Shown: in pieces, positions 23,562 to 60,307 of the stretch
Position numbering within the stretch: position 1 is the stretch's first letter
How the letters are laid out: each line of letters opens with the position of its first letter
From: an uncultured bacterium
GTDB taxonomy: Bacteria; Poribacteria; WGA-4E; WGA-3G
Direction: 5' to 3'
NCBI GenBank assembly: GCA_964523645.1
Contig: CAZGAW010000004.1
Coordinates: forward strand, 8,284 to 72,283
Length of the DNA: 64,000 bases
Program-made: the position numbers and the translations under genes
Notes under the pieces: generated by a model
What the model was told of the DNA's origin: nothing
The model's database searches: none
The model's input: the letters and a program-made list of their open reading frames with translations, nothing else

Positions 23562-25160
23562 ATGACCAAGAATAAAAAACCTAACATCGTCCTTATCCTA
23601 AACGATGATATGGGCTTTTCTGACTTAGGCTGCTACGGCGGCGAAGTCCACACGCCAAATCTGGATCGGCTTGCCGAAAGCGGGCTGAGGTTTACACAAT
23701 TTTACAACACCGCACGCTGTTGTCCATCCCGTGCCTCCATGCTTACTGGGCTGCATCCGCACCAAACTGGGGTGGGACACATGATGGGCGATGATGGGTT
23801 AGAAGGCTACCGTGGAGACCTAAATGACAGCTGTGTCACTATTGCCGATGTTGTTCGCTCAGAAGGTTACGGCACCTATATGAGCGGCAAATGGCATATT
23901 TCTCGACATACCAGTGCTGAGGCTCCCAAGCATAGTTGGCCCCGTCAGCGCGGATTCGACCATTACTACGGTATTATCACCGGTGCCGCAAATTTTTGGA
24001 AACCGAACACACTAACGCGGGATAATACCCGTATCCAACACGATGAGCTTCCTGAAGGCTACTTTCTTACAGATGCTATCAGCGACGAAGCAACGGCGTT
24101 TATCCGCAATCACACTCAAAAGACCCCTGAGCGTCCATTCTTCACCTATGTCGCTTACACCGCGCCGCATTGGCCCCTACACGCGCACGAAGAAGACATC
24201 GCCTATTACAACGGGCGTTTTGCCGCTGGATGGGACGAACTCCGAGAGGAAAGGCTCGCAAGGATGCGGGAGATGAAAATTTTAGACGAGACATGGCCGC
24301 TCACCGCACGCGATCCCTCGCAGCCACCTTGGAGCGATGCACAATACAAAGAATGGAATCAACGCCGCATGGAAGTCTATGCAGCGCAAATTACCCGCAT
24401 GGATGCAGGGATTGGACAGATTATTAACACGTTGGAAGAGACCGGACAACTCGATGACACCCTCATCCTGTTTTTAGCCGATAACGGTGGTTGTGCTGAG
24501 GAACTCGGAGGACCGCCCGCTATACGCGACAGCGATTCACTCATCAGTACCGAGACGACCTCCGATGGACAACCCGTCTATCGTGGTAACGATCCGAGCA
24601 TCATGCCCGGTCCGGAGACTACCTATCAGAGTTACGGGGTGCCGTGGGCAAATTTATCGAATACGCCATTCCGTGAATACAAACATTGGGTGCATGAAGG
24701 CGGTATAGCGACTCCACTAATCGCACATTGGCCAGATGCCATAAAATCGGCGGGAGAGTTGCGTCATCAGCCTGGGCAATTGCCAGACATCATGGCGACA
24801 TGTCTCGAAGTTTCAGGCACGACCTATCCTGAAGAACATAATGGAAAACCGATTTTGCCGTTAGAGGGAACAAGTTTAGTGCCGATTTTTGATGGAAAAG
24901 ATAACAGTAAAGAGGTGCTTTATTGGGAACACGAAGGCAATTGTGCAGTCCGCCAAGGTAAATGGAAATTGGTTTGCAAGTTCCCCGGCGATTGGGAGCT
25001 CTACGACGTGGAAGCCGAACGGACAGAAATCAACAATCTTGCTACCAAGCATCCGCAAAAACTAAAAGAGCTTGTTGGGCTTTATCAAGACTGGGCGGAC
25101 CGCTGTTTCATCTACCCGTGGGACCGACTTCAAGAGAAACGCAGACAACAACGTCAATAG
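23562..25160 (+). CDS. arylsulfatase (Cys-type sulfatase family)
   Basis: AAAGAGG RBS. Sulfatase signature CCPSRASMLTGL (C-x-P-x-R) with conserved metal-binding N-terminal DD. Confidence 0.85.
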   Translation: MTKNKKPNIVLILNDDMGFSDLGCYGGEVHTPNLDRLAESGLRFTQFYNTARCCPSRASMLTGLHPHQTGVGHMMGDDGLEGYRGDLNDSCVTIADVVRSEGYGTYMSGKWHISRHTSAEAPKHSWPRQRGFDHYYGIITGAANFWKPNTLTRDNTRIQHDELPEGYFLTDAISDEATAFIRNHTQKTPERPFFTYVAYTAPHWPLHAHEEDIAYYNGRFAAGWDELREERLARMREMKILDETWPLTARDPSQPPWSDAQYKEWNQRRMEVYAAQITRMDAGIGQIINTLEETGQLDDTLILFLADNGGCAEELGGPPAIRDSDSLISTETTSDGQPVYRGNDPSIMPGPETTYQSYGVPWANLSNTPFREYKHWVHEGGIATPLIAHWPDAIKSAGELRHQPGQLPDIMATCLEVSGTTYPEEHNGKPILPLEGTSLVPIFDGKDNSKEVLYWEHEGNCAVRQGKWKLVCKFPGDWELYDVEAERTEINNLATKHPQKLKELVGLYQDWADRCFIYPWDRLQEKRRQQRQ

Positions 25161-25217
25161 CGTAAAAACTATGTATATGGTTGGGCGGGTGCGGCACCCG
25201 CCCAGCTTTATAAAAAA

Positions 25218-26312
25218 CTAAACACACGGTAACATCTTCAGACAAACCGGCATTGGCACCTCTGCCACATCCCCTGTCGCATTTAATTCACCCGTTTCAG
25301 CGTCAATAGCGAACGTAACAACGGTATCGGTCTGCTGATTAGCGGCAAAAAGGAACGTTCCTTCTGGATTCAACCCGAAGTTTCGCGGAGTTTGCCCTTG
25401 CGTTGACTCATGACCGATCGGGCTGAGCATCCCGGTTTCCGCGTTGATCGCACAGATAGCGATGCTGTCATGTCCACGGTTTGAACCATACAAGAATTTC
25501 CCAGAAGGGTGAACGTGAATATCGGCACAATGGCTGGTGCCATCAAAATCATCAGGAAGCGTAGAGATTGTCTGAAATTCAGCCAGTGTTCCCGCACTCG
25601 CGTCGTACCGAAAAGCCGTAAACGTAGAATCTATTTCGTTAATCACGTATGCGTACTGTCCGTTCGGATGGAAATCGAAATGCCGCGGTCCTGCACCGGG
25701 CTGCACGCGCGCCCACGGTTGTGTATTCGGCGTGAGCGTCCCATTTTCCGCATCCAATTGGTAGATGAGGACTTTATCAAGCCCCAGATCAGGCGCGAAG
25801 GCATAGCGATTGCCCGGATCAATCATAATCGCATGTGCGTGCGGTTCCATCTGCCGCTGTGGGTTGACACTCGATCCTTGATGCTGCACGAAATCAGAAG
25901 CCTCACCGAGCCTCCCGTCTGACCCTATTGGGAAAGCAGTGACGCTGCCACCCCCATAATTTGCCACGAGCAAACATTTACCGGTAGCATCCGCACTCAG
26001 ATGACACGGGGCACCACCGCCAGTCGCTCGCTGGTTTAGGTAACTAATCTCCCCCGTTTCCTGATGGATATAAAATGCCGTAACCGCGCCACTATCTTTC
26101 CCTTCAAACTCCCCTAACTCGTTGACAGCAAAGAGATACCGCCCACTCGGATGTATCTCCAAAAACGAAGGATTCTCAACACCTGTCATCTTGCTGCTAT
26201 ATTCCAAGGCACCGGTCGCACCATCTAAGCGGTAAACGTAAATCCCTTCACTATCCCCTTGCGTATAGGTGCCGACATAAACGAAATAGTCTTGGCTGTT
26301 TTGTTGCGCCAT
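25218..26312 (-). CDS. lactonase, 7-bladed beta-propeller (6-phosphogluconolactonase-like) family
   Basis: AAGGAG RBS. N-terminus YVGTYT...GIYVYRLDGATGAL is typical of the Pgl/lactonase family. Its start lies 14 bp after the upstream sulfatase stop, so it is in an operon. Confidence 0.65.
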   Translation of the reverse strand: MAQQNSQDYFVYVGTYTQGDSEGIYVYRLDGATGALEYSSKMTGVENPSFLEIHPSGRYLFAVNELGEFEGKDSGAVTAFYIHQETGEISYLNQRATGGGAPCHLSADATGKCLLVANYGGGSVTAFPIGSDGRLGEASDFVQHQGSSVNPQRQMEPHAHAIMIDPGNRYAFAPDLGLDKVLIYQLDAENGTLTPNTQPWARVQPGAGPRHFDFHPNGQYAYVINEIDSTFTAFRYDASAGTLAEFQTISTLPDDFDGTSHCADIHVHPSGKFLYGSNRGHDSIAICAINAETGMLSPIGHESTQGQTPRNFGLNPEGTFLFAANQQTDTVVTFAIDAETGELNATGDVAEVPMPVCLKMLPCV

Positions 26313-26326
26313 TATGAATAATCTCC

Positions 26327-27937
26327 TTATGAAACTTTTAGATGAATTGTTCGCTCTTCACTTTCACGATAACCGATGCGAATTGCTTTTGCACGCACAG
26401 AGGTCTCACCTTTCGATATACGTAGTGGGTTGGTATACAATTGCCAACGCGCATCATCGCCCTGCTCCGTTGTGTAAGCAAGTGATGCCCCTTGCGTGGA
26501 GCAGTGAAGCTGTAAAACAAGGGGAGCCGCCCATTCGCCAACCCTATGTGCCACCTCTGTGCCGGGATGTTCGGCGTTAATCGGAATAAAAATCGGAGCC
26601 GCCGTTTGTGGTTGTGTACCATCCGGATACCACGTTGCCACCATCTGTTCTTCGGGTATATTCCCCATGTCCCCGAAATCGGATTGCCACTGCGCCAACG
26701 CACCGCGCATCCGTGCCAGTACCTCTTGGTGTTCAGTATCCGCTGCCAAATTATTGAGCTCGTATCGGTCATTTTCCACATCGTAGAGTTCCTCAGCGGG
26801 ACGTGGCGAACGGAACATCACTGCTTGGTCGCCTTCCAATTCGCCTGCGGCATACAACCGCCACATTTCTTGCATGACCGGATGCCGATTTCGATAAGGA
26901 ATCCAGAGCAGATACGGCTTCTCAGGATAATAATTTCTGATGTATTTATACCGTTTATCGCGGACAGCACGGACCATATCGTAAGACTCATCATAACGGT
27001 CACGCGTCGCGAAGATATATTCGCGTTCTATAGTCTCCGGTCCAAGGAACGGTTGTCCCTGTAGATGCTCCGGGGCATCCACGCCACAGAGTGAAAGCAC
27101 TGTTGGACCGAGGTCAATCAAACTCACGAGTTGTTCACTGGCACTGCTGGGACTTAGCGTTCCGGGCCATCGCACAATCAATGGGATGCGGATACCGGCA
27201 TCATAGGGCCACCGTTTTCCACGCGGGAGTCCTTCACCGTGATCACTCCAGAGAAAAACAATAGTATTCTCTGCAAGTCCATCTTCTTCCAACTGATCAA
27301 GTAGTTTACCAACGCGCGCATCAGCAGTTGCAAGATTATCGTATTGACGCGCCAACGCCTGACGTGCTTTTGGTGTATCCGGTAGATAGGGCGGTAACTG
27401 TACATCATCTGGATTCGTAGTTGTCGTTAAGGGACGATCCTCCCGTTCCCACATACCGCTCTCGTGCGTAACGGTCGGATTGAAGACCGAAAAGAAGGGT
27501 TGACCGGCTTCACGATTTCGCCAATGCGCAGTGTTGTCACACTCATCCCACGCTGTAATTGGCGGCGTAAACTGATAATCGGTCTTACTGTTGTTTGTAC
27601 AGTAATAGCCCGCACCTCTGAGATATTCAGTAAAGGTTTTGACATAAGGCGGTGGTACTGCGGAATACGGCGTAGGCATATCCGGGGTGTTTTCATTCGT
27701 ATGCGCTGTCCGCATGTGGTGCGTACCGATAGAGGTCTGGTACATGCCGGTAATGATAGCGGAACGGCTCGGTGCACAAACGCCAGCAGTCGAAAACGCA
27801 TTCGGAAACCGACACCCGCCAGCAGCAAGTCGGTCAATATTCGGTGTCCGAGCAAGTGTATCCCCATAACAACCGAAACGCGGGGTCGTATCTTCTACAG
27901 AAATCCAAAGAATGTTCGGACGGTCTGGTGTGTTCAT
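26327..27937 (-). CDS. sulfatase (Cys-type), paralog A
   Basis: True start MNTPDRPNILWISVED at 27937 has a GGGAG RBS. Sulfatase signature CAPSRSAIITG. It is about 80% identical to paralog B. Confidence 0.85.
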   Translation of the reverse strand: MNTPDRPNILWISVEDTTPRFGCYGDTLARTPNIDRLAAGGCRFPNAFSTAGVCAPSRSAIITGMYQTSIGTHHMRTAHTNENTPDMPTPYSAVPPPYVKTFTEYLRGAGYYCTNNSKTDYQFTPPITAWDECDNTAHWRNREAGQPFFSVFNPTVTHESGMWEREDRPLTTTTNPDDVQLPPYLPDTPKARQALARQYDNLATADARVGKLLDQLEEDGLAENTIVFLWSDHGEGLPRGKRWPYDAGIRIPLIVRWPGTLSPSSASEQLVSLIDLGPTVLSLCGVDAPEHLQGQPFLGPETIEREYIFATRDRYDESYDMVRAVRDKRYKYIRNYYPEKPYLLWIPYRNRHPVMQEMWRLYAAGELEGDQAVMFRSPRPAEELYDVENDRYELNNLAADTEHQEVLARMRGALAQWQSDFGDMGNIPEEQMVATWYPDGTQPQTAAPIFIPINAEHPGTEVAHRVGEWAAPLVLQLHCSTQGASLAYTTEQGDDARWQLYTNPLRISKGETSVRAKAIRIGYRESEERTIHLKVS

Positions 27938-28030
27938 TGTGACTCCCTGTTTTTGGCAACGATTGTACCCCAAACAGCGGTTTAAGTCAATAGGGGGCAT
28001 CTAAGCATTCAGGGGCATTTATAGTAAACC

Positions 28031-28140
28031 TTAGAATTAATTAGATACACTAAAGAGGCGAGGTTGAAAACCTCGCCAGCGGGAGTGGAGGTTTTGCTTC
28101 TACCGAAATGTCTATTTATTTATAGGTTTTGCCATAGTTG
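28031..28140 (-). repeat. conserved ~110-nt intergenic element (copy 1) with mutually exclusive GC-rich hairpins, upstream of sulfatase A
   Basis: The string ttagaattaattaga...gaggcgaggtt-gaa-aacctcgccagcgggagtggaggttttgctt...taggttttgccata recurs at 32931-33079. The hairpins GGCGAGGTT/AACCTCGCC and AAAACCTC/GAGGTTTT overlap. Confidence 0.5.
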
Positions 28141-29744
28141 TCTGAAACTGTGAATTTTAGAGATTTTTCATCGCTCTCTTTGTAACCGATCCGAATTGCT
28201 TTTGCTCTTATAACGGTTTCACCTTTCGGTAAACGCAAAGGTTCTGTATACAACTGCCATCGGACATCCTCACCTTGTTCGGTTGTATACGCAATTGAGG
28301 CACCTTGTGTTGAACAGTAGAGTTGCAGCAGCAACGGTGCATCCCATTCTCCATCTTCATGAGCAGTCTCCATGCCGGGGTTAGACGCGTTAATCGGAAT
28401 GAAAAGTGGTGATGCCGTTTGCGGCTGTGTGCCATTAGGATACCACTTCGCCACCATTTCTTCTTCAGATATATGCCCCATATCCCCGAATTCCGATTGC
28501 CATGCTGTCAACGTTTCTTGCATCCGTTTAAGCACATTTGCATGTGCGGCATTCTCTGCTAAGTTGTTGAGTTCATACCTGTCATTTTCCACATCGTAGA
28601 GTTCTTCAGTGGGGCACGGTGATTGGAACATGGCCAATTGATCTCCCTCTAATTTGCCTTCGGTATAGAGTCGCCACATCTCCTGCATCACAGGATGGCT
28701 ATTGCGGTAAGGATCCCAGCGGAGATACGGCTTTTCGGGATAATAATTTCGGATGTATTTATACCTTTTATCACGTACAGCGCGCAGCATGTGATACGAT
28801 AAATCAAGGCGGTCGCGCGTCGCGAAAATATATTCACGTTCTACTTTTTGTGGTCCAAGGAAGGGTTGTCCTTGTAGGTGCTGCGGGGCTTGAACACCGC
28901 ATAACGAAAGCACAGTGGGCCCGAGGTCAATCAAACTCACCAATTGATCACTTGCACTCCCTGGATTAAGTGCTTCGTGCCAACGCACAATTAACGGAAT
29001 TCGAATCCCCGCATCATATATCCAACGTTTACCGCGGGGAAGTCCTTCGCCATGATCGCTCCAGAGAAAGACGATGGTATTCTCTGCAAGCCCGTCCTCT
29101 TCCAATTGATCTAACAACTCTCCGACACGTGCATCGGCAGTGGCGAGGTTATCATACTGTCGAGCCAATGCAGCACGGGCTTTAGGCGTATCTGGTAAAT
29201 AAGGCGGTAACTCCACGTCATCTGGATTCGTTGTCAGTGGACGATCTTCCTTTTCCCACATACCGCTTTCGTGTGTAACGATTGGGTTAAAAACGGAAAA
29301 GAAGGGTTGCCCTTCCGAACGATTTCGCCAGTGCCCTTGATTGCTATTGTCATCCCATGCTGTGATGGGTGGTGTAAACTGATAGTCTGTTTTACTATTG
29401 TTGGTGCAATAATAGCCGGCCCCTCTCAGGTATTCGGTGAAGGTTTTCACATAAGGTGGCGGAACAACAGAATACGGCGTAGGTAGGTTAGGTGTACTTG
29501 GGTGTGTATGCGTTGTCCGATGGTGATGTGTTCCGATGGAAGTCTGATACATACCGGTGATAATAGCGGAACGACTCGGGGCACAGACACCGGCAGTCGA
29601 AAACGCATTCGGAAACCGACACCCGCCAGCAGCAAGTCGGTCAATATTCGGTGTCCGCGCAACGGTATCCCCGTAACAACCGAAACGCGGGGTCGTATCT
29701 TCTACAGAAATCCAAAGAATGTTTGGGCTGTCTGATGTATTCAT
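28116..29744 (-). CDS. sulfatase (Cys-type), paralog B
   Basis: AGGGA RBS. MNTSDSPNILWISVED and CAPSRSAIITG. It is a tandem duplicate of paralog A. Confidence 0.85.
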   Translation of the reverse strand: MNTSDSPNILWISVEDTTPRFGCYGDTVARTPNIDRLAAGGCRFPNAFSTAGVCAPSRSAIITGMYQTSIGTHHHRTTHTHPSTPNLPTPYSVVPPPYVKTFTEYLRGAGYYCTNNSKTDYQFTPPITAWDDNSNQGHWRNRSEGQPFFSVFNPIVTHESGMWEKEDRPLTTNPDDVELPPYLPDTPKARAALARQYDNLATADARVGELLDQLEEDGLAENTIVFLWSDHGEGLPRGKRWIYDAGIRIPLIVRWHEALNPGSASDQLVSLIDLGPTVLSLCGVQAPQHLQGQPFLGPQKVEREYIFATRDRLDLSYHMLRAVRDKRYKYIRNYYPEKPYLRWDPYRNSHPVMQEMWRLYTEGKLEGDQLAMFQSPCPTEELYDVENDRYELNNLAENAAHANVLKRMQETLTAWQSEFGDMGHISEEEMVAKWYPNGTQPQTASPLFIPINASNPGMETAHEDGEWDAPLLLQLYCSTQGASIAYTTEQGEDVRWQLYTEPLRLPKGETVIRAKAIRIGYKESDEKSLKFTVSDNYGKTYK

Positions 29745-29835
29745 TATAGATCCCTATTTTTGGTGATGATTGTACCCTAAACAACGGAAAATCCAGCTTG
29801 ACAGGCAGGATATAAGAACCTCGTTAAACAAAGCT

Positions 29836-30675
29836 TTAACACCAGCACCCTTCCGTATACGCCTCACGATCAAATAACTTTTGACGGAACGGTGTCGCGT
29901 TTACCATCCACTCATCAGGGATTTCTTGCGTATAACGGTGCGGTGGTCCCGCCTCTTTGAAGATGTCAATAGCAAAGATACGATAAAGCTGCGGAGAATC
30001 CACAGGTTTCGCTTCCACTGCGTGGAAGATGCGCGCGTCAATGTAGACCATGCTACCCGGCGGTAATTCAAGCCGTTTTTCTTCCAGTTTGCGTCCAGCT
30101 TCTTCGTCGAAATCACCTGCGAGCATCCGTTCTGGAGTTGCTTCTTTCGTGGGTGCTACTTTATGGCTGCCCGAAATAACTTTGAGGTTCCGATCTCCAC
30201 GTGTGAAACCGTTCGGATAGTACAGAATCTGGATATAATAATTATCTCGCTCTGCGATGTTAACGGGGTTTTCATGCTTCCAATGGTGATGGTCCTGGTG
30301 GTATCCAAGTGGACCGATCCCGCGGGGTGCGATGTTAAGGGCAGAGTGGCAGAAATGGTATGCGTCGCCAATAGTCGTCTGTATGAGTGCCGTAATGAAG
30401 GGATCATCAATGAGCCGATCGCTGTATTCGCCACGATCGTTCCATGGGCGAATAAAGTAGGAGTGCTCCTGGGTGTGCCCGTTATTCAAAGACTCAATGT
30501 ACTGACGCGTTGGCTCAAAGTGCTGTGTAATCTCTTCAATCAATCCTTCTCTCCCGTCGTCTGTGAATACATCTGGATATGCGATGTAACCATTGTCATG
30601 AAAAGCGTCGATATCCGCCTGCGACGGACCCGATAATCGGAAAAGTGAATCAAGTGTCGTCGTTTCCATAGCCAT
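29836..30675 (-). CDS. PhyH-like Fe(II)/2OG dioxygenase family protein
   Basis: AAGGAG RBS. The likely start is the second Met (30669). His-rich HQDHHHWKHENP and a C-terminal IFHAVE motif. Confidence 0.5.
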   Translation of the reverse strand: MAMETTTLDSLFRLSGPSQADIDAFHDNGYIAYPDVFTDDGREGLIEEITQHFEPTRQYIESLNNGHTQEHSYFIRPWNDRGEYSDRLIDDPFITALIQTTIGDAYHFCHSALNIAPRGIGPLGYHQDHHHWKHENPVNIAERDNYYIQILYYPNGFTRGDRNLKVISGSHKVAPTKEATPERMLAGDFDEEAGRKLEEKRLELPPGSMVYIDARIFHAVEAKPVDSPQLYRIFAIDIFKEAGPPHRYTQEIPDEWMVNATPFRQKLFDREAYTEGCWC

Positions 30676-30815
30676 AACTCCTTACACAATTCGTAATTGC
30701 ATTCCCTAAGTTTGGTTTGACTTTTGGTTGATTTGAAAGTATAATTCTACCATTCTTTCGGTTTCTGAGGCTGCAAACCCTTAGTGTCTTATGTGAGATC
30801 AATAGGAGGAAAAAA

Positions 30816-31058
30816 ATGCAAAAACTCGACCGTATAACATTTAATCCAAATGTAATGGGCGGCAAGCCTTGTATCCGCGGCATGAGGGTCACTGTCGGAA
30901 CACTCGTCGGCCTGGTTGCTAGCGGCAATTCCGTCGAAGACATCCTGAAAGCCTACCCTTATGTAGAAGAAGAGGACATCCGTCAAGCTCTTACTTACGC
31001 TGCCTGGCGCGTTGAAGAAATTGAATTGCCCCTAGATATCTATGAAAATACTGATTGA
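30816..31058 (+). CDS. DUF433-family antitoxin-like protein
   Basis: AGGAGG RBS. The 80-aa protein has NPNVMGGKPCIRGMRVTV, typical of DUF433. Its stop overlaps the start of the next gene. Confidence 0.6.
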   Translation: MQKLDRITFNPNVMGGKPCIRGMRVTVGTLVGLVASGNSVEDILKAYPYVEEEDIRQALTYAAWRVEEIELPLDIYENTD

Positions 31059-31416
31059 TATGAACCTTTCTCTTGACTGGGTCAACATTTTTGAACAGCA
31101 CGGGTGGCATGCTGTTCACTGGCAAGAGATTGGTGATCCGCGCGCGCCAGATAGCACCATTATGGATTGGGCACGGGTAAATAACTATGTTGTGTTTACA
31201 CGTGATCTTGACTTTGGAAAGTTTCTGGCAACCACCCGTGCTCAAGGTCCAAGTGTAATTCAGGTTCGGAGACCGAACACGCTTCCTCACAATTTTGAAG
31301 ATTGGTTCGTCAATATTCTTCATCAGCACGAAGCAGCCTTAGAACGTGGTGCTTTACTTACCGTGGACGAAGGGCGAGGAAGAATGCGTCTTTTACCCTT
31401 TCCAACAGGTTTATAG
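31042..31416 (+). CDS. DUF5615-family PIN-like putative toxin
   Basis: MKILIDMNLS...VVFTRDLDF resembles DUF5615, a commonly recurring partner of DUF433. Confidence 0.55.
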   Translation: MKILIDMNLSLDWVNIFEQHGWHAVHWQEIGDPRAPDSTIMDWARVNNYVVFTRDLDFGKFLATTRAQGPSVIQVRRPNTLPHNFEDWFVNILHQHEAALERGALLTVDEGRGRMRLLPFPTGL

Positions 31417-31421
31417 TCTCC

Positions 31422-32894
31422 TCACATTTGACTGTGTCCATCTCGATTAAACTTCTCCAGCAATCCCGTCAGACGTTCCACAATTTCTGGGTGTTTGTCC
31501 CATAGGTTATTTGTTTCGGCTGGATCCTCGTAAATCTGATACAGTTGCCCGGGGACATCCGATTTCGGACCCCCATCGCGAGGAGGGGGCCATCCACCTG
31601 AACCTTGCGTACCCAGAATCAGCTTCCATCCGCCGTGTCGGATAGAGAAAACACCGGTACTGGAGTGATGCACGATAGTTTCGCGTAAAGGAACTTCTGT
31701 CTCTTCACCCAATAACACAGGCAAGACATTACAACTGTCCTGTCCAGCATCATCCGGGACTTCCTCCCCAACAATAGCAGCGCACGTCGCCATTAGATCC
31801 GTAAGGCAGGTTAACGCATCGGTTTGCGTATTGGGTGCAGTGACTCCGGGCCAGCGCGCAATCAGCGGTTCACGATGTCCACCTTCCCAGATATGCGCCT
31901 TATAGCCGCGCCAGTCACCGCACGACTTGTGGTCGTAGAGATGATACGGCATTGGACTATTATCGTCTTGAATTCGGTCGCCGGGCAATGCCCCGTTATC
32001 ACTCGTAACGAAGATGAGCGTCTCGTCGGTTTTGCCAGTACGTTCTAACGCATCCATGACCTCACCCACCATCCAATCAACAAGCCACACCAGATCACCA
32101 CGAGGCCCCGCACTGCTTTTGCCGCGAGCAAAGTCTGGAACGACTGCTTCTGTGCAAGGTTCATGCGGCGCGGAGGGAGTCAGATAGAGGAAGAAAGGCG
32201 CATCTGCCTCGGCTTGTTGCTCAATATATTCAACCGCTTTCTGCGCTATAATAGGATCGGCATCCTTATGTTCCCACCCCGGCACCATCATTCCCGGACG
32301 GCTCGTAAACTCTGGCACTTCATGATAGACACACGGGACCTCAACAAACGTATCGTTTTCAATAAAACCGTAAGGCGGTTGACAGGTTGGGCAACCGGAA
32401 TTACCGTAAAAATAGTCAAAGCCGAGGTCTACTGGACCGCCAGTCAATGGTGCATTGAAATCAATATGTTCCTCCAACTCGCGTCCTGCGTTCTGCCACG
32501 GCAGCGGTGCGTTGAAATCAAAATCGTATCCCGGCACCGTCGAAAATCCGAGCCCCAAATGCCATTTACCGACACATGCGGTATTGTAACCAGCATCTTT
32601 CAGCAATCGAGGAACTGTTAAGCGTTCGGGTTCGATAAGGGGTGGCTCATACCCGTAAAGCACGCCGTGTTTGAGACGACTTCGCCAGCAGTATCGTCCC
32701 GTTAAGACCCCGTATCGTGTCGGTGTACAGACCGCAGAGGGAGAGTGCGCATCGGTGAAGCGTATTCCCTCCTGTGCGAGCTTATCCATATTCGGAGTGG
32801 GAATTTTTGAGTCAGAATTATAGCAGCCGACATCACCGTATCCCATATCGTCTGCCATGATAAAAACAATGTTCGGAGAGGCGTGTGTATTCAT
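31422..32894 (-). CDS. sulfatase (Cys-type), paralog C
   Basis: AGGAA RBS. N-terminus IVFIMADDMGYGD and signature CTPTRYGVLTG. Confidence 0.85.
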   Translation of the reverse strand: MNTHASPNIVFIMADDMGYGDVGCYNSDSKIPTPNMDKLAQEGIRFTDAHSPSAVCTPTRYGVLTGRYCWRSRLKHGVLYGYEPPLIEPERLTVPRLLKDAGYNTACVGKWHLGLGFSTVPGYDFDFNAPLPWQNAGRELEEHIDFNAPLTGGPVDLGFDYFYGNSGCPTCQPPYGFIENDTFVEVPCVYHEVPEFTSRPGMMVPGWEHKDADPIIAQKAVEYIEQQAEADAPFFLYLTPSAPHEPCTEAVVPDFARGKSSAGPRGDLVWLVDWMVGEVMDALERTGKTDETLIFVTSDNGALPGDRIQDDNSPMPYHLYDHKSCGDWRGYKAHIWEGGHREPLIARWPGVTAPNTQTDALTCLTDLMATCAAIVGEEVPDDAGQDSCNVLPVLLGEETEVPLRETIVHHSSTGVFSIRHGGWKLILGTQGSGGWPPPRDGGPKSDVPGQLYQIYEDPAETNNLWDKHPEIVERLTGLLEKFNRDGHSQM

Positions 32895-32930
32895 TATAAT
32901 TCCTGAATAGGGATGTGATAATTATGATAG

Positions 32931-33079
32931 ATTTTAGAATTAATTAGACCTTCTAAAGAGGCGAGGTTAGTAAAGGAAACACCCAAGCAAAACACCTCGC
33001 CAGCGGTAGTGGAGGTTTTGCTTTTACTGAGATCGCCTTGCAGTGAGAGTTATTTGTAGGTTTTGCCATATATATCACA
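32931..33079 (-). repeat. conserved intergenic element (copy 2) upstream of sulfatase C, retaining a fossil sulfatase 3' end
   Basis: Homologous to 28031-28140. On the minus strand it contains tat ggc aaa acc tac aaa taa (YGKTYK-stop), identical to the last codons of sulfatase B but here non-coding. Confidence 0.5.
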
Positions 33080-34171
33080 TTATTGTAGTTTCGACTTTAA
33101 TTCAGCAAGATCCTTGTCAAGCGAGGCTTCTTCGGCATAACTCGAAAATTCGCGCTCTAATTTCGTGTCCTGATATGCGACATCCACCTCAGCCGCCGTT
33201 TTCGCTAAAGTAGCTGCCTCCGTTGCGTCCTGATCCATCTTCGCAAGCGTTTCAAAGGCTCTACTGTCGTGTATCTCTTTGAGCATCTCGCGGAGATGCG
33301 CTTCAGCATCAACGTTTCTGTTTTTCGCCACAACAGCTGCTTTTTTCCCTTCCGCTTCCATCATTTTCTGCTGAAGATGCTCAAGAAGATCACTGAGATC
33401 CCGGACGCTCTGTTTCTGTTCTTCCCACTGCTTCTTGTATTGATCTGCTAATCGTCGGTATTCGTTTCGTTTTTCGAGGTCCTCACGCGCCAAATCCTCA
33501 CGTTCGGCTTTAAGGGAAATGAGTGCCCGTTCTTGCCACTGTTCTGCTTGGACGACAGCCGCTTCATAAGCCTCCTGAAACTGTTTTTCAACCCCAATAG
33601 AGGCACCAACCTTCTCCCGCGCCTCCGAAAGCCGGTTTCTCATCTCAACGATGACGTTCTCTAAAACCCGTTCTGGGTCTTCAGTTTCAGTCTCAGTCTG
33701 CTCCGGTTCCGGTTCATATTTCACAACAACCGTTTCTGCTAATTTATCTCCGAGCCGTTGTTGTTTTTCTCCAAGGAACCAGAGTAAATCAAATGGTTGG
33801 AAGATACCTGAGAGTCGGCGAAGGAAAGCATCTTTGAAAGTACACGGCTTGCCATCCTTCAAACGAAGCACTTGCAGTGACAGCAGCTTCTTCCCTATGC
33901 CCTGACCTTTTCTGAAACCATCGAGAAAAAACAAACCAAATATCCACAAGGCACCACTGAATAGAGCACCAAATATGCTAACAAAACCGATGGTTAAGAT
34001 TGATCTGGAGGCACTGAAGGGTTCGAGAAACAGGACTGCTACAAGCGATAAAAGGAGTCCGAAGACTGATTGCACGGTACCTAAGAGCGCAATATCTATA
34101 AAAAGCGCGTATAAGCGTGTCATTCGGGATGCCAATTTGAATTTTTTCCCTGCAATCTTAATAGACTTCAT
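33080..34171 (-). CDS. RDD-family membrane domain fused to PspA/IM30 (ESCRT-III-like) coiled-coil domain
   Basis: N-terminal RDD pattern (RLYALFIDIALLG...GQGIGKKLLSLQVLRLKDGKP...RLGDKLAETVVV). The C-terminal ~200 aa align with PspA (LSEAREKV...QAEQWQERALISLKAEREDLAREDLEKRNEY...DAEAHLREMLKEI). Confidence 0.6.
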   Translation of the reverse strand: MKSIKIAGKKFKLASRMTRLYALFIDIALLGTVQSVFGLLLSLVAVLFLEPFSASRSILTIGFVSIFGALFSGALWIFGLFFLDGFRKGQGIGKKLLSLQVLRLKDGKPCTFKDAFLRRLSGIFQPFDLLWFLGEKQQRLGDKLAETVVVKYEPEPEQTETETEDPERVLENVIVEMRNRLSEAREKVGASIGVEKQFQEAYEAAVVQAEQWQERALISLKAEREDLAREDLEKRNEYRRLADQYKKQWEEQKQSVRDLSDLLEHLQQKMMEAEGKKAAVVAKNRNVDAEAHLREMLKEIHDSRAFETLAKMDQDATEAATLAKTAAEVDVAYQDTKLEREFSSYAEEASLDKDLAELKSKLQ

Positions 34172-34225
34172 CTTTGAATCCTAAAAATCTTTTTGTTTTT
34201 GTACAATACACATCTCGATGAACTG

Positions 34226-35404
34226 TCATTTTTGTACTTTCGCTTTCAATTCAGCAAGGTCTTTGTCAAGCGAGGTTTTTTCAGCATAACTTGCAAACTC
34301 ACGCTCCAATTTCATATCCTGATATGCGACATCGACTTCAGCCGCTGCTTTCGCTAAGGTGGCCGCCTCAGTCGCATCCTGCTCCGTCTTTACAAGCGTA
34401 TCAAATCTTCCGCTGTCCTGTATCTCTTTTAACATCTCACGCAGATGCGCTTCAGCATTGATGTTTCTGTGTTGTGCCATGACAACCGCTTTCTTCCCTT
34501 CCGCTGCCATTACTTTCTGTTGGAAATGTTCAAGAAGGTTGCTAAGTTCCCGAACGATCTGTTTCTGATTTTCCCACTGATTTTTGTATTGATCTGCCAA
34601 TCGTTGATACTCGTTCCGTTTTTCGAGGTCTTCGCGTGCCAGATCTTCACGTCCTGCTTTGAGAGAGATAATAGCGCGTTCTTGCCACCGTTCTGCTTGG
34701 ATAACGGCTCCTTCATAAGCATCCTGAAATTGTTTCTCAACGCCGATGGAGGCATCAACTTTTTCGCGCGCCTCTGAAAGCCTATTCGTCATCTCAGCGA
34801 TAACACTCTCTAAGACCCGTTCTGGGTCTTCAGTTTCAATTTCAACCTGCTCCGGTTCCGGTTCATATTTCACAACGACTGTCTCTGCGAATTTATCCCC
34901 TATTCGCTGCCGTTTTTTTCCAAAGGTCCAGAGGGAATCCAAGGGTTGAAAGACGCTTGTGAGTCGGCGAATAAAAGAATCTTTGAAAGTACACGGTTTA
35001 CCATCTTTCAATCTCAGCACCTGCAGTGATAGCAGTTTTTTGCCAAGTCCTTGCCCATTTTTGAAGCCATCCATGAGAAATAAACCGGCTGTCCACAGTG
35101 CTATACCGCCCGAGGCTAAGGTATCCGGATTATTATTTCCCCACGTCCACGGTCCGAAAACAAAAACTAAAAGTAATTGCGCGGCAACCAACACACTTTT
35201 TGGTAGTTTGGTTTTAGGTCCGAATATCCACAATAATGCGCTGAGCAATCCAATCTGAATGGGGCCAAAACTCATTGCTGCAAGAAAGAGGAACAAAACC
35301 ATTAGGATACTCGCTAAGAGCATGCCATCGATGAAAAACGCAAATAAGCGCGCGAATCGAGACCCTAATCTGAATTTTTTACCCGTAATTTCAATAAATT
35401 TCAT
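34226..35404 (-). CDS. RDD-PspA/IM30 fusion protein, tandem paralog with extra TM segments
   Basis: AGAGGA RBS. About 80% nucleotide identity to 33080-34171 over the PspA-like half. Confidence 0.6.
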   Translation of the reverse strand: MKFIEITGKKFRLGSRFARLFAFFIDGMLLASILMVLFLFLAAMSFGPIQIGLLSALLWIFGPKTKLPKSVLVAAQLLLVFVFGPWTWGNNNPDTLASGGIALWTAGLFLMDGFKNGQGLGKKLLSLQVLRLKDGKPCTFKDSFIRRLTSVFQPLDSLWTFGKKRQRIGDKFAETVVVKYEPEPEQVEIETEDPERVLESVIAEMTNRLSEAREKVDASIGVEKQFQDAYEGAVIQAERWQERAIISLKAGREDLAREDLEKRNEYQRLADQYKNQWENQKQIVRELSNLLEHFQQKVMAAEGKKAVVMAQHRNINAEAHLREMLKEIQDSGRFDTLVKTEQDATEAATLAKAAAEVDVAYQDMKLEREFASYAEKTSLDKDLAELKAKVQK

Positions 35405-35596
35405 CTTGAAAGTCCTCTACGCTTTCTACGGGAACATCTCGCGTGTTAGATTGAAACAGACAAACTTGCAGTGTTTCGCACCGCAGCATGGATCTCGGTT
35501 GAACATCAGTTCTGTGAATCCTACCGCGTTTTGTACATAATTATATAGAGTCTATGAAGGTGAGAAAAGATAGTAAAATGAACACCGGAAACGAAG

Positions 35597-35618
35597 GGCG
35601 AGGTATGGAGACCTCGCC
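35597..35618 (-). terminator. GC-rich hairpin GGCGAGGT-N6-ACCTCGCC 9 nt after the stop of the Gfo/Idh/MocA gene
   Basis: Member of the GGCGAGGT(T) hairpin family. The downstream U-tract is weak (cuucguuucc on the minus strand). Confidence 0.35.
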
Positions 35619-35626
35619 TCACAATT

Positions 35627-36685
35627 TTATAAAGTCGGTACCGTCACTGCAACTTCGCGGCCGCCTGCGTTTGAAGAGTCGATGACCCCCTGAATAATAA
35701 CGTTTGTGAGCAGCACGCCATACGGATCAATTGGCGAGGGCTTTCCTTCACGGACAGCGTCGATAAATGCTGAGTCCTCCTCATGGAAGACACTCACCGA
35801 TTCAAATTCGGTGAATTCTTGATCAAAAATCTCACCGTCTTTATCGCCGTAGACGCGTACACCCTCCTCTGGTCCGCGAACTTCTCCGATGCCGAGACGT
35901 AATCCCGCTTTTTTGCCGAGGAAAATCGTCCCACCAAGTGAGTCCATGTTCATGCACCAGCACGTCTTGAATACCATGCGTGCGCCGTTTTCAAAGACTA
36001 CCCAGCCGACACCGAAATCTTCTACTTCAGTTTCTTTAAGAGCAGGATTCCACGTGTTGTGGAGGCTTAGGTAGTTAGAAGTGATACCAGAGACCGCAAC
36101 CGGCTTGGGATGTCCCATTAGGTAGAGAGCCGTATCCAGTGCATAAACACCAATATCTGCAGATGCTCCTAAACCGGCTGTTGCCTTTCGGATGAAACTA
36201 CCGCCCGGATTTCCGCGTCGTCTATCTGCTACGGTTTCGACGTAGTAAATATCACCGAGTGTGCCAGCGTCAACAATCTCTTTCGCTTTAACGACCTGCG
36301 GTGAATACCGAAGTTTCAAACCGACCATGAGGATTTTATCGTTTTCTTTTGCGGCGCGCCACATTGAAGCTGCAGCGTCCAACGTCGCCTCCATCGGTTT
36401 CTCACAGAAAACATGTTTGCCTGCATTCAGCGCAGCGACAGTAGGTGCAGCATGCACACCTGTGGGGGTACAGACGTAAACTGCCTCGATTTCGTCCATT
36501 TTAAGCATTTCATTGTAATCAGTGAACGTACGCTCTATACCCCACTGTTCTTTCGCACGTTCCAGGTTTGCAGGGACGAGGTCGGCAGCAGCGATAATCT
36601 CGGCACCTTCAATCTCAGCAAGCGTTCGGCAGTGTGCGCCTGAGATACCACCCGCCCCAATCAAGCCTAATTTAACTGTTCTCAT
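35627..36685 (-). CDS. Gfo/Idh/MocA family NAD(P)-dependent oxidoreductase
   Basis: GAGGAG RBS 6 nt before ATG at 36685. N-terminal Rossmann LGLIGAGGISGAH. Confidence 0.8.
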   Translation of the reverse strand: MRTVKLGLIGAGGISGAHCRTLAEIEGAEIIAAADLVPANLERAKEQWGIERTFTDYNEMLKMDEIEAVYVCTPTGVHAAPTVAALNAGKHVFCEKPMEATLDAAASMWRAAKENDKILMVGLKLRYSPQVVKAKEIVDAGTLGDIYYVETVADRRRGNPGGSFIRKATAGLGASADIGVYALDTALYLMGHPKPVAVSGITSNYLSLHNTWNPALKETEVEDFGVGWVVFENGARMVFKTCWCMNMDSLGGTIFLGKKAGLRLGIGEVRGPEEGVRVYGDKDGEIFDQEFTEFESVSVFHEEDSAFIDAVREGKPSPIDPYGVLLTNVIIQGVIDSSNAGGREVAVTVPTL

Positions 36686-36959
36686 TTTCAACTCCTCATT
36701 AGGTATTGTATCTCCTTGATTTTAAGCTTTTCGCCTTTGAAAGTCAAGTGAAATTTTGAATCTCTCAACCAATACAGTTGCAAACCAGATTACCTTTTTT
36801 CTCCTCGACACATCTTTTGATGCAGCTTCCAAGGAAGATTGATGAAGTTTTCTAACCTCATCAGCAAAGGGGCTTCAGAAGGCTCCGTAGAGTTGATATT
36901 GACACAATTCCGAATCCATGCTATATTTCAAACAGATTATTACATTTGAGGAGCCTATT

Positions 36960-37991
36960 TTGAAAGCGGCACAATTTTACGGTGGAAAAGATATACGGGT
37001 TGAAACGGTACCGGATCCAACGCCTGAAGAAGGACAGGTGTTGGTACAAGTAGAGGCAACAGGCATCTGTGGTAGCGATCTGCACGGGTACCATCATCAG
37101 CCAGAGAAGCCTTTATCCCCACGCATTGGCGGACATGAATTGACAGGAAAAATTATTGACATAGGCAAAGGCGTTACGGGACATGAAAAAGGGATGCGTG
37201 TGGCGGTTGAACCGATCAGTCCGTGTAATAATTGTCCAGAATGCTTCAACGGCTATTACAACATCTGTGGGAACCTACGGCACGGTGGCGGTGGTTTTGC
37301 AGAGTATATGACCACCCGTACGCCAAATGTGTACACATTACCAGACAGTGTTTCTACTGAAGGCGGCGCATTAGCAGAGGTTTATGCTGTAGCCGTTCAT
37401 GCCGTCAACAGAGCCATGGTGTCACCTGGAGATCGTGTCGCTATTATCGGAAGCGGTCCCGTCGGGTTGACGATCGCTCAGGTAGCGGATATCGCCGGAG
37501 CAACCTCCATCGCTATGATCGGGAAGCCCGATGGTCCGGTACAGATCGCCCACGAAGTCGTTGGCGCTGTGCCTATCAATGTAGATAAAATGGATGCTGT
37601 CGAGGCTATCATGGATTGGAGTGACGGCAGAGGTGCCGATGTTGTCTTTGAAGCCGTCGGGGGTACTGCGAATACACTGGAACAGGCGACAGAAATTGCA
37701 GCGAAACGCGGAAGGGTCTGTATGGTTGGTGGACATCGCACCCCGCTCACCTTTTCAGAGCGGTTCGCTCGGAGTCGGGAGCTTACGGTCATCTGGTCGT
37801 TCTGTTACGGCAGACGGGGTGGAAAAACAGAGTTCCAAATTGCCATCGATCTACTCGCTGCGGGTAAACTCGATCCAAATCCATTAATCACGCATCGGTT
37901 CAACTTGGACGATATTACGGAAGCATTCGCCGTCGCAGCCGGACGCGATGAACACGGCTCCGTCAAAGTTCTCGTAATCCCCAATAATTAG
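36960..37991 (+). CDS. zinc-dependent alcohol/polyol dehydrogenase (MDR family)
   Basis: GAGGAG RBS before the TTG at 36960. The longer ORF from 36918 lacks an RBS. GICGSDLHGY and GHELTG zinc motifs, and a GxGxxG NAD site. Confidence 0.75.
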   Translation: MKAAQFYGGKDIRVETVPDPTPEEGQVLVQVEATGICGSDLHGYHHQPEKPLSPRIGGHELTGKIIDIGKGVTGHEKGMRVAVEPISPCNNCPECFNGYYNICGNLRHGGGGFAEYMTTRTPNVYTLPDSVSTEGGALAEVYAVAVHAVNRAMVSPGDRVAIIGSGPVGLTIAQVADIAGATSIAMIGKPDGPVQIAHEVVGAVPINVDKMDAVEAIMDWSDGRGADVVFEAVGGTANTLEQATEIAAKRGRVCMVGGHRTPLTFSERFARSRELTVIWSFCYGRRGGKTEFQIAIDLLAAGKLDPNPLITHRFNLDDITEAFAVAAGRDEHGSVKVLVIPNN

Positions 37992-60282: not shown

Positions 60283-60307
60283 GCAATCGTATAGCGTGTA
60301 ATCCTCA

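Follow-up and report, generated by a model that had tools for sequence, protein, structure and literature searches.

Two repeats beside sulfatase genes very probably belong to a family of short mobile elements found only in Candidatus Poribacteria

Introduction

When two genes of the same kind are each preceded by much the same non-coding DNA, is that DNA part of how the genes are controlled, or did it arrive independently of them? The question is raised by the window, the whole stretch of 64,000 nucleotides analysed here, in which the sulfatase genes sulfA (26327-27937) and sulfC (31422-32894) each have a full copy of one element on their 5′ side, both copies lying on the minus strand, on which the flanking genes are also coded. 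A sequence-only reading had placed the copies at 28031-28140 and 32931-33079; nhmmer searches and a family profile confirm that both are present and correct their boundaries:

28020-28136, minus strand: copy 1 (W1), full length at 117 bp, lying between the sulfB coding end and the sulfA promoter-like site (nhmmer E = 5e-31; CM 119 bits, E = 4e-25); not in the syntenic relative L057
32923-33070, minus strand: copy 2 (W2), 148 bp long, with the RDD/PspA gene stop (33080) on one side and the sulfC start (32894) on the other (nhmmer E = 5e-27; CM 76 bits); not in L057 or L056

Over 117 aligned positions the copies show 86.3% identity, a further 31 gapped positions being two insertions in copy 2, and the shared stem reported earlier, GGCGAGGT(T)/(A)ACCTCGCC, is found in both; the window contains GGCGAGGT 11 times where 1.3 would be expected. 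We argue that the two copies very probably belong to a family of mobile repeats, short, non-coding and non-autonomous, that turned up only in Candidatus Poribacteria, the phylum to which the source of the window itself belongs.

Results

The unit measures about 117 bp, or 104-191 bp with its optional internal modules, and is bounded by terminal inverted repeats, imperfect and about 36 bp long, which open with 5′-TATRGTAAA and close with TTTACYATA-3′. The two arms share 64-72% identity over about 39 nt, their ends pair in the predicted folds, and the whole element folds end to end (z = -5 for L018). The parts of the two copies are as follows:

28101-28136, minus strand: left terminal inverted repeat of copy 1 (TATGGCAAAACCTATAAATAAATAGACA...), from the family alignment and end pairing in the whole-element fold; carries the last sulfB codons and the stop
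28057-28077, minus strand: central hairpin of copy 1, GGCGAGGTT-TTC-AACCTCGCC, then TCTTTAG (pair probability ~1.0; isolated hairpin -14.1 kcal/mol)
28020-28056, minus strand: right terminal inverted repeat of copy 1 (...TCTAATTAATTCTAAGGTTTACTATA), from the family alignment
33029-33049, minus strand: subfamily module of copy 2 after the left repeat (CTCTCACTGCAAGGCGATCTC), common to L012, L016 and L022
32960-33001, minus strand: central hairpin of copy 2, with arms 33001-32994 and 32967-32960

The loop of the copy 2 hairpin holds a 26-nt insertion (32968-32993) that bears GTTTTGCTT, the partner of the upstream AAGCAAAAC, and related loop modules are present in L007b and in a third, degenerate copy in the window. 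Stops break five of the six frames in W1, W2 and L018, where the longest open stretch is at most about 42 codons; the frames left open are forward frame 2 in W1 and forward frame 0 past the left-end stop. At the junctions most copies read T, then TA...TA, then A. Being palindromic, TA alone does not tell whether the target was duplicated or the inverted repeat merely extends that far, and the flanks of the empty sites have diverged; the CT...CT of a single copy, L013a, favours a 2-bp duplication.

The family was delimited by a pattern scan for AAGCAAAACN{8,14}GCTGGCGAGGT across 185,579 species genomes, in which the core pattern gave 12 matches, all in 8 Candidatus Poribacteria MAGs; the remaining 9 pattern matches have no 3′ arm, and about 8 were expected by chance. 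One genome, OX639992.1, matches the strict pattern four times, and three of its copies (L018, L019 and L013a) are 95-97.5% identical. Profile and CM searches revealed additional, unselected copies inside nearly every 8-20-kb locus, and extrapolation from about 150 kb of unselected sequence gives tens to a few hundred copies per genome. Rfam covariance models gave no match over the element (24000-37000 searched) even at E <= 10, and blastn at word size 11 gave none in 5,426 genomes of E. coli, a carrier of ERIC and REP, and none against plasmids. The family thus seems undescribed, but the kind of element, a MITE/REP composite, is ordinary.

The genes beside the copies represent about 20 unrelated families, in both orientations and in tandem, convergent and divergent pairs. 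They include AAA ATPase, GFO/IDH/MocA, sugar transferase, LepA, PhyH, LamG, RDD, DUF3500, ECF sigma factors, SBP, ABC permease, methyltransferase and aldo-keto reductase, and only one sulfatase outside the window. Of the copies that follow a gene 3′ end, about 14 run in the same direction as that gene and about 4 are antisense to it, by a manual tally.

The window holds further repeats that the sequence-only reading had not mentioned, namely a nested copy 3 and lone hairpins at two other gene ends:

2502-2636, plus strand: copy 3 (W3), degenerate, with ends ATGAAG...CTTCAT, between ferrochelatase and amine-oxidase-family genes (nhmmer E = 4e-7)
2487-2499, plus strand: 5′ half (GGTAGGTGCGGTT) of a GTAG-tagged lone hairpin just past the ferrochelatase stop, its 3′ arm at 2639-2646; aligned with an intact hairpin in L062
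35597-35618, minus strand: lone hairpin GGCGAGGT-CTCCAT-ACCTCGCC, 9 nt past the GFO/IDH/MocA stop
60256-60286, no strand assigned: lone palindrome TTGGCGAGGTT-CCA-AACCTCGCCAGCAA between convergent genes, a DprA-like one ending at 60207 and a glycosidase-like one ending at 60308

Copy 3 is nested in the loop of the stand-alone hairpin, which is split because copy 3 was inserted between its arms. The inner hairpin of copy 3 (arms 2567-2574 and 2601-2608) keeps its pairing through two G.U-compatible changes. At the L057 site orthologous to the 35597-35618 hairpin a changed stem still pairs (GTGCGAGG/CTTCGCAC, with one G.U), and the hairpins after GFO and after hemH both persist at orthologous sites with altered stems.

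Comparison of related genomes shows filled and empty versions of the same sites. In L057, a close syntenic relative, the same genes are present, the flanks align, and copies 1 and 2 are both missing: the two copies are insertions. Copy 2 split a junction between the RDD/PspA gene and sulfC that has a 42-nt spacer in L057 and is an overlap of the two genes in L056, both relatives being free of copy 2. A transcript arriving at sulfC from upstream would now have to cross a strongly folded insert of 148 nt. Around the copy 1 site the window and L057 differ too much in their flanking sequence for the exact state before insertion to be read. The spacer between hemH and hemY is 227-260 nt long in the window, L060 and L061 versus 96-99 nt in L062-L065; here the window and L060 have the copy 3 site filled, L061 has a different partial element there (hairpin plus right arm), and in L062-L065 the site is empty. 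A further insertion in L061 (about 4948-5075) is missing from L060 and L065, which brings the filled/empty differences to four sites. The recurrence of hairpins at gene 3′ ends, some of them orthologously conserved, could also suggest an immobile, conserved gene-end terminator module that was spread and homogenised among intergenic regions by gene conversion. We judge this very unlikely, given the clean presence or absence at four sites of whole units of about 120 bp with defined inverted-repeat ends, the copies that lie upstream of genes or antisense to them, and the near-identity of copies within one genome despite unrelated flanks. Dispersed copies and empty sites instead support what the sequence-only reading had offered as a fallback, a mobile REP-like unit.

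How, then, did copy 2 come to carry what had been taken for a fossil sulfatase stop region? The stretch TATGGCAAAACCTACAAATAA in copy 2 reads YGKTYK-stop and resembles the end of sulfB, and on that likeness a sulfatase-plus-leader cassette was proposed to have been duplicated locally, the gene upstream of copy 2 being replaced later and its stop left behind. The corresponding part of copy 1 is:

28116-28142, minus strand: 8-codon extension of sulfB with its stop (DNYGKTYK-stop), of which Y-G-K-T-Y-K-stop is read from the left end of the element

The codons YGKTYK-TAA are part of the left terminal repeat of the element. The same 21-mer family opens the copies in L013, L018 and L019, which come from another genome and whose scanned neighbours are unrelated genes, and frame 0 of L018 likewise gives YGKTYK-stop. 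The codons are missing from sulfA, which ends ...KVS-stop against ...TVS-DNYGKTYK-stop in sulfB, and from the sulfB ortholog of L057 (534 aa, ending TCA TGA), both of them 8 codons shorter than sulfB. Copy 1 thus replaced the sulfB stop codon, adding 8 codons. With only about 24% identity between sulfA and sulfC, the two genes downstream, duplication of a gene with its leader cannot account for 86%-identical DNA upstream. Each window copy is nearer to L018 (about 90% identity) than to the other (86%). Refuted by copies in unrelated contexts, the cassette with its fossil stop retains hardly any credibility.

A covariation check had been suggested for the hairpins and was run: across the family, 96.9% of the cells in the main hairpin are paired, 3 of 9 pairs show compensatory changes, and the covariation score exceeds that of all 500 shuffles. 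Elements with identical ends bear differing hairpins, the positions that are not Watson-Crick are mostly G.U on the forward strand (noted by eye), and the apex GGTT-TCCT-AACC is nearly invariant. Predicted pairing of the main hairpin is near-certain (~1) in 11 of 13 copies, 0.74 in L009 and ~0 in W2.

These hairpins bear on whether the element is a cis-regulatory leader RNA, a terminator/antiterminator attenuator or a riboswitch acting on the coding strand to control how the sulfatases are expressed. In favour of such a leader, each full copy in the window is on the 5′ side of a sulfatase gene in sense orientation, copy 2 is probably within a transcription unit, TCTTTAG comes after the hairpin of copy 1, which is flagged as terminator-like, and an upstream C-rich stretch is able to pair with the 5′ arm of the hairpin. 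The complementary segments on which mutually exclusive hairpins had been proposed do exist (AAAACCTC/GAGGTTTT and AAGCAAAAC..CCTC/GAGG.GTTTTGCTT). Conservation of the second helix, however, failed to emerge: the probability of the alternative stem is ~0 in copy 1 and ~0.8 in copy 2, so that the predicted ensembles of the two copies are opposite, because copy 2 has its copy-specific insertion, and across 13 copies the real upstream sequence gives no better alternative pairing than its shuffled versions do (0.03-0.69 of shuffles at least as good). The tails 3′ of the hairpin vary across copies and in most are not U-runs, and the element is without an Rfam match. A promoter-like site, moreover, lies on the far side of copy 1:

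27962-27990, minus strand: sigma-70-like promoter site of sulfA (TTGACT-17-TACAAT) from a consensus scan, outside the element and downstream of copy 1

Both hexamers are kept in L057, which lacks the element, and copy 1 is thus upstream of a conserved promoter-like site of sulfA. Like a terminator or attenuator, the element has a 9-bp, GC-rich hairpin some tens of nucleotides past a stop codon and, in copy 1, a partly T-rich tail; unlike one, it lacks a U-run in most copies, its alternative helix is unconserved, and copies occur antisense to genes and upstream of promoters. With no gene-family specificity, both orientations in use, and orthologous sulfatase loci of close relatives, L057 among them, devoid of copies, the sulfatase leader is contradicted by the distribution and the empty sites and is extremely improbable. 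Pairing kept on the forward strand does not appear to fit a ligand- or signal-controlled sulfatase switch.

Discussion

Among the known bacterial MITEs are Correia/NEMIS in Neisseria, RUP in S. pneumoniae, which is related to IS630-Spn1, and ERIC (reviewed in Delihas, Mol Microbiol 2008, PMC2229807). Many accepted bacterial MITEs have no known partner IS, and Correia elements come in 107-bp and 155-bp forms whose internal segments differ (PMC2229807). Of the features by which a MITE is recognised, a non-coding length below 200 bp, terminal inverted repeats, dispersed similar copies and sites both filled and empty are found in the Poribacteria element. The likeness extends to its size of 100-200 bp, its 5′-TA-3′ termini, its mostly intergenic position, a transcript that would fold as a single long stem-loop, subfamilies set apart by internal segments, and in-frame fusion to an ORF. 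It differs from the known families in its host phylum, in having no sequence similarity by blastn (E. coli genomes with ERIC/REP, and plasmids), in its central GC-rich hairpin, which also exists as a lone repeat, and in having no known partner IS. The end of the Correia element resembles that of the Poribacteria element in the first five bases (TATAG) only.

Insertion polymorphism suggests that the copies were mobilised, in which case a transposase acting in trans would have moved them. The TA-flanked inverted repeats, together with the one CT...CT copy, would suggest that 2 bp of target are duplicated, in the manner of IS630/Tc1-type elements; the alternative mover would be a tyrosine (HUH) transposase of the REP type, working on the hairpin. 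In about 320 kb of Poribacteria DNA, including some 50 neighbouring ORFs and the locus gene tables, neither a transposase with matching ends nor a RAYT gene was seen.

It may instead be the hairpin that is the functional and mobile core, a REP-type repeat spread on single-stranded DNA by a REP-associated tyrosine (HUH) transposase and kept by the host as an mRNA 3′-end stabiliser or terminator, the inverted-repeat arms being a secondary shell as with GTAG-15. A precedent exists in Anabaena variabilis, where GTAG-15 units sit inside long TATAGGA...TCCTATA palindromes (Di Nocera et al., BMC Genomics 2013, PMC3733652). The GTAG-REPs described there resemble the Poribacteria hairpins in their 6-13 bp stems (8-9 bp here, and 13 bp in the lone L010 unit), in subfamilies that arise through complementary stem changes and G.T pairs, in a preference for sites after coding regions and between tandem or convergent ORFs, and in the GTAG beside many hairpins; GTAG-15 is also alike in placing the hairpin centrally within a longer palindrome with ends TATAG...CTATA. 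Lone hairpins at gene ends (window 35597 and 60256; L010, L012, L020, L003, L057) are in keeping with such a core, as are the GTAG tag on many variants (L003b, L057a and lone units in L003, L012, L020 and L057), compensatory variation with mismatches mainly G.U on the forward strand, the orthologous persistence of the post-GFO and post-hemH hairpins with changed stems, and the insertion of copy 3 within the loop of one such hairpin. On the other side, the hairpin flank of window copies 1 and 2 is CCGCTGG, with GCTGG in place of a GTAG-type tag and none of the allowed variants (GYAG/GYRG/GTRG/GTMG/GTGG), and in the lone CGG-type units GTAG is an internal bulge, not an unpaired end. Poribacteria units are single, not dimers, and their conserved loop (the TTTCCTAA region) is longer than the 2-4 nt of most REP families; a RAYT is missing from the DNA surveyed, and TA-flanked inverted repeats with a CT...CT copy better match a cut-and-paste enzyme of the DDE type. 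Poribacteria are not named in the abstract or in sections 5 and 7 of PMC3733652. On balance a REP core is an improbable account, and a MITE-like, non-autonomous mobile repeat stays the reading that we prefer.

Whatever moved the repeat, selection would seem to keep its hairpin paired on the forward strand. This would fit a REP-like role as RNA 3′-end stabiliser, weak terminator, or single-strand recognition structure for the moving enzyme, and the co-directional bias (about 14 versus about 4) together with the covariation leaves room for an RNA function at the level of the host, at least for the hairpin. The near-invariant apex, the covarying stem, the mismatches that favour the forward strand and the persistence at orthologous gene ends are the grounds for a bolder idea, which we think unlikely: that the hairpin is a genuine functional motif of Poribacteria, either a signal for RNA 3′ ends or insulation to which a dedicated protein binds, or the hairpin recognised by an uncharacterised system of HUH/RAYT type, and that the inverted-repeat shell spreads it and rewires operons such as RDD/PspA-sulfC. 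If that were true, the insertions near sulfatases would carry real regulatory consequences.

Gene setting and copies of the element

The genes of the region all lie on the minus strand, and the proteins of the window have relatives 80-95% identical that are labelled Candidatus Poribacteria, which places the window in that phylum. The genes, in transcription order, and one nested repeat are as follows.

36691-35627, minus: GFO/IDH/MocA oxidoreductase gene, first of the region's genes
35404-34226 and 34171-33080, minus: two paralogous RDD+PspA genes, 3' of the GFO/IDH/MocA gene
32894-31422, minus: sulfatase gene sulfC, 3' of the RDD+PspA genes
between sulfC and the PhyH-like gene, minus: two small ORFs
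30675-29836, minus: PhyH-like gene
29744-28116, minus: sulfatase gene sulfB, 542 aa
27937-26327, minus: sulfatase gene sulfA, 536 aa
3' of sulfA, minus: lactonase gene, last in order
2487-2646, plus: nested repeat with GTAG-tagged hairpin arms (2491-2499 and 2639-2646), just past the ferrochelatase stop

The two stretches that the sequence-only reading had flagged beside the sulfatase genes are real repeats. With boundaries set from comparison of the whole family, W1 (28020-28136, minus strand) and W2 (32923-33070, minus strand) are 86.3% identical over 117 aligned positions, with two W2 insertions of 31 nt in total. As had been described, the sequence contains the stem GGCGAGGT(T)/(A)ACCTCGCC together with complementary segments upstream, and no Rfam match was found over the element, even at E <= 10. 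Short mismatch-tolerant searches brought out a diverged third copy, W3 (about 2502-2636, plus strand), which lies away from the sulfatases, between the ferrochelatase gene (hemH) and an amine-oxidase-family gene (hemY). The hairpin also stands bare at 35597-35618 (minus strand), 9 nt past the oxidoreductase stop, and at 60256-60286, between two convergent genes; GGCGAGGT occurs 11 times in the window vs 1.3 expected. Intergenic DNA at 54794-54840 (plus strand), before the ORF at 55014, holds what resembles a decayed hairpin (GGGTAGGAGAGGTTTCTAACC...) whose 3' arm is broken.

Empty and filled sites

The element was compared with related loci (numbered L0xx here) in other Poribacteria DNA. In L057 the gene order is that of the window (GFO, RDD/PspA genes, sulfC, PhyH, sulfB, sulfA, lactonase) and the sulfC ortholog is 89% identical, yet the RDD/PspA-sulfC spacer measures 42 nt vs 185 nt in the window and the sulfB-sulfA spacer 82 nt vs 178 nt; at both spacers the flanks align with the window and the gap is the element. 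In L056, at 90% identity, there is no spacer at all, the RDD gene running into sulfC. The insertion point of W2 lies in the AT-rich loop of a small palindrome right after the stop codon, which reads GTGATA...TATCAC in the window and GCGAT-GTTTT-ATCGC in L057.

Two more sites are polymorphic. One is the hemH-hemY spacer, which measures 96-99 nt in L062-L065 vs 227 nt in L060, 256 nt in the window and 260 nt in L061. The short spacers hold an intact GTAG-tagged hairpin, which in the window and in L060 is split in its loop by an inserted element, the L060 insertion having a different centre; L061 has a different hairpin and a right arm at this site. In the window the insert is 135 nt long with inverted-repeat ends ATGAAG...CTTCAT, and this nesting of one repeat within the hairpin loop of another suggests that the elements target hairpin loops. 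The other is in L061 (about 4948-5075), where some 125 nt are inserted that L060 and L065 lack, and the family is still polymorphic between close relatives.

Distribution and anatomy of the family

The pattern AAGCAAAACN{8,14}GCTGGCGAGGT, scanned over one genome per species (185,579 species), gave 21 hits, 12 of them in eight Candidatus Poribacteria MAGs, with four of these 12 on the single chromosome OX639992.1; the remaining nine fell in other phyla and are without the 3' arm. With this pattern, about eight hits are expected by chance. A profile HMM and a covariance model added copies beyond those picked by the pattern scan (L013b, L007b, L012b, L003b, L003c and L020b, the suffixes marking separate copies in one 8-kb locus). 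Outside the genome scan, the left-end pattern TATRGYAAAACCTAYAAATAA returned 25 metagenome loci, nearly all chance AT-rich matches, with L022 as the sole relative; nine hairpin hits in viral contigs included none from the family; and 5,426 E. coli genomes and 72,556 plasmids held no sequence similar to the element.

The aligned copies give a unit of about 117 bp: 5'-TATGGTAAAACCTACAAATAA ATAGACATCTCAGTAG AAGCAAAAC CTCCACCACC GCT GGCGAGGTT TCCT AACCTCGCC TCTTTAGAGTGTCTAATTAATTCTAAGGTTTACCATA-3'. Its ends, about 36-39 nt each, are imperfect inverted repeats of each other (64-72% identity), and the whole unit of L018 folds end to end with z = -5.1. The junctions read T|TA...TA|A in most copies and CT...CT in one young copy, L013a; this copy favours a 2-bp target duplication over a TA belonging to the repeat. 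Three of the OX639992.1 copies are 95-97.5% identical, and W1 and W2 are each about 90% identical to these three, closer than W1 is to W2. After partial elements on two unrelated contigs, L021 (about 7700-7760) and L022 (about 375-405), a common motif TTGTAGCATAAACT(N)GT(N)AGTTTGTG was observed, in L021 directly downstream of a cas6 gene; it may be a further repeat or a promoter-like module.

Neighbouring genes and the sulfB tail

Pfam scans of the genes adjoining about 20 element copies identified AAA ATPase, Csx3-like protein, GFO/IDH/MocA oxidoreductases, sugar transferase, LepA, PhyH, LamG-like proteins, RDD, DUF3500, ECF sigma factors, solute-binding protein, ABC permease, methyltransferase and aldo-keto reductase, and one sulfatase only. 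The copies lie between tandem, convergent and divergent gene pairs and in both orientations. Since at least four sulfatases occur among the roughly 45 genes of the window, two insertions beside sulfatases are unremarkable.

It had been proposed that W2 preserves the fossil stop-codon region of a sulfatase (YGKTYK-TAA), left by duplication of a sulfatase-plus-leader cassette. The string is in fact the left terminal repeat of the element and recurs in L013, L018 and L019, where the scanned neighbours are unrelated genes: a sugar transferase at L013a, a GFO/IDH/MocA oxidoreductase at L018, and a Csx3-like protein and AAA ATPase at L019. Nor can duplication of a gene with its leader explain the similarity of the upstream DNA, because sulfA and sulfC share no more than about 24% identity. 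The sulfB product aligns with the 82%-identical sulfA up to ...VS, where sulfA ends and sulfB adds DNYGKTYK*, and the sulfB ortholog in the syntenic L057 (534 aa) ends ...TCA TGA at exactly that point. The shorter sulfA and the L057 ortholog therefore indicate that the original sulfB stop was displaced by the element and that the ORF now enters it. In-frame ORF fusion of this kind is a known behaviour of miniature inverted-repeat transposable elements, or MITEs (PMC2229807). For annotation, this keeps the eight-codon element-derived tail of sulfB from being taken as native protein.

The proposed switch

The repeats had also been read as a terminator/antiterminator switch for the sulfatases, in which an alternative stem overlaps the main central hairpin. 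Folding does not support it. In W1 the main hairpin has a pair probability of 0.96-1.0 and the alternative stem about 0, the isolated hairpins having energies of -14.1 and -7.6 kcal/mol, respectively. The ensemble is reversed in W2 (alternative stem about 0.8, main hairpin about 0) because of the two W2-specific insertions, GTTTTGCTT in the loop and an extra GGCGAT upstream that captures the 3' arm. Across 13 copies the main hairpin stands at about 1 in 11, at 0.74 in L009 and at about 0 in W2, and the C-rich upstream stretch pairs with the G-rich 5' arm no more strongly than shuffled upstream sequence does (fraction of shuffles at least as good, 0.03-0.69). The tail 3' of the hairpin is T-rich in some copies only, and W1 lies upstream of the best promoter-like site for sulfA (TTGACT-17-TACAAT), which is conserved in L057 without the element. 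Together with the varied neighbouring genes and the use of both orientations, these results leave a conserved attenuator unsupported. For annotation, they guard against entering a mobile repeat under the sulfatase riboswitches.

The sulfA ATG at 27937 has GGGAG just before it and matches the sulfB start. The promoter-like TTATCA-17-TATAAT at 32921-32893 was discounted for sulfC, since the ATG falls within its -10 box region. The long loops of W2 and W3 would sterically allow an H-type pseudoknot in which AAGCAAAAC/GTTTTGCTT interleaves with GGCGAGGT/ACCTCGCC; this was dropped, the GTTTTGCTT module being an optional insert absent from most family members. Likeness of the loop TTCCTAA to an anticodon loop was dismissed as coincidence, the stem having 9 bp and no tRNA context.

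Constraint on the central hairpin

The same element ends surround different central hairpins: GGTTCGGTT/AACCGAACC in L003b, GGGGCGGTT/AACCGCACC in L056a, GTAGGGGTTGGGT/ACCCAACCCCTAC in L057a, GGGCAAT/ATTGCCC in L003c and GGGACAGG/CCTGTCCC in L020b. Gene ends also carry units that stand alone, built as CCCGGTAGG-xxCGGTT-TC(C)T-AACCGxx-CCGGG. Among 18 hairpin units, aligned by their conserved apex only, 96.9% of cells are paired, three of nine pairs have changes on both sides (12 cells), and none of 500 shuffles or of the slid controls reaches the covariation score; the units were collected by hand, which calls for caution. Inspection by eye showed the non-Watson-Crick pairs to be mainly forward-strand G.U (W3, L010, L011, L061, L062 and the L057 ortholog of the 35597 hairpin), plus one A.C. 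At orthologous sites the 35597 and post-hemH hairpins are kept with altered stems and retained pairing, the former being GGCGAGGT/ACCTCGCC in the window and GTGCGAGG/CTTCGCAC in L057 (about 5960-5985). Copies 3' of a gene end are co-directional in about 14 cases and antisense in about four, a manual tally of a small sample of non-independent copies. Covariation, forward-strand G.U pairs, orthologous persistence and the co-directional excess together suggest that the hairpin may act in single-stranded form, in forward orientation. As RNA it might serve in REP-like 3'-end protection or weak termination; as single-stranded DNA it could be the substrate of a mobilising enzyme.

Relation to known mobile elements

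The other possibility raised from sequence, a mobile REP-like unit, gains support from the dispersed copies, empty sites and inverted-repeat ends. By the features listed in PMC2229807, the element qualifies as a bacterial MITE under the working definition. It is non-coding and shorter than 200 bp, its terminal inverted repeats come with TA termini, and it can fold into one long stem-loop; it also has dispersed similar copies, filled and empty sites and an ORF fusion. A known partner IS is the single feature missing here. Pfam scans of about 50 ORFs neighbouring element copies found no transposase, and a crude regular expression for long elements with these ends on both sides found nothing convincing. 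The centre of the element resembles GTAG-tagged REPs, and the closest architectural precedent is the GTAG-15 repeats of Anabaena variabilis, which sit inside long palindromes with TATAGGA...TCCTATA ends (PMC3733652). W1 and W2 carry none of the allowed GTAG variants, and the Poribacteria loci examined showed no RAYT, so we do not file the copies as REPs. A full-text literature search turned up no account of such elements (MITEs, REPs or other intergenic transposable elements) for Poribacteria, so the family is probably undescribed, but its type is a textbook one.

The family is probably abundant in Poribacteria, where it reshapes intergenic regions as well as the ends of ORFs and the junctions of operons. 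Poribacteria are uncultured sponge symbionts, and MAGs and single cells are the only source of knowledge of them. The family is a possible strain marker and a possible source of assembly breaks.

Other variable features of the region

The tandem paralogs sulfA and sulfB (26327-29744, minus strand; protein identity 82%) correspond to one gene in L058 and two in L057, which points to a recent duplication in this clade. An IS605-type OrfB/TnpB gene adjoins the sulfatase-lactonase block of L058 (18708-19625); it is the sole transposon-related gene seen in the loci examined and has no evident tie to the element ends. The tandem paralogs at 33080-35404 (minus strand) encode fusions of an N-terminal RDD and a C-terminal PspA/IM30 domain, with their last 300 nt about 80% identical; this block is variable, given at least three fragmented copies in L057 and just a short RDD gene in L056. 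At the sulfC-PhyH interval (30650-31329, minus strand), a small variable spot, the window has two small ORFs without a Pfam match; L057 (11456-12062) has a pair of PIN/DUF433 genes, toxin-antitoxin-like and of opposite strand, and L056 and L058 have nothing.

Two long ORFs elsewhere in the window contain repeats. At 6450-12119 (plus strand) a giant ORF of 1,889 aa has an 18-nt tandem repeat near its start (6885-7007) and orthologs of 1,882-1,928 aa, without a recorded Pfam hit, in L060-L062. At 56304-59174 (plus strand) an ORF of 956 aa consists of about 13-15 tandem 123-nt units (about 41 aa) with 60-80% DNA identity, which contain TGGGA(C/T) in the manner of WD40-type beta-propeller repeats.
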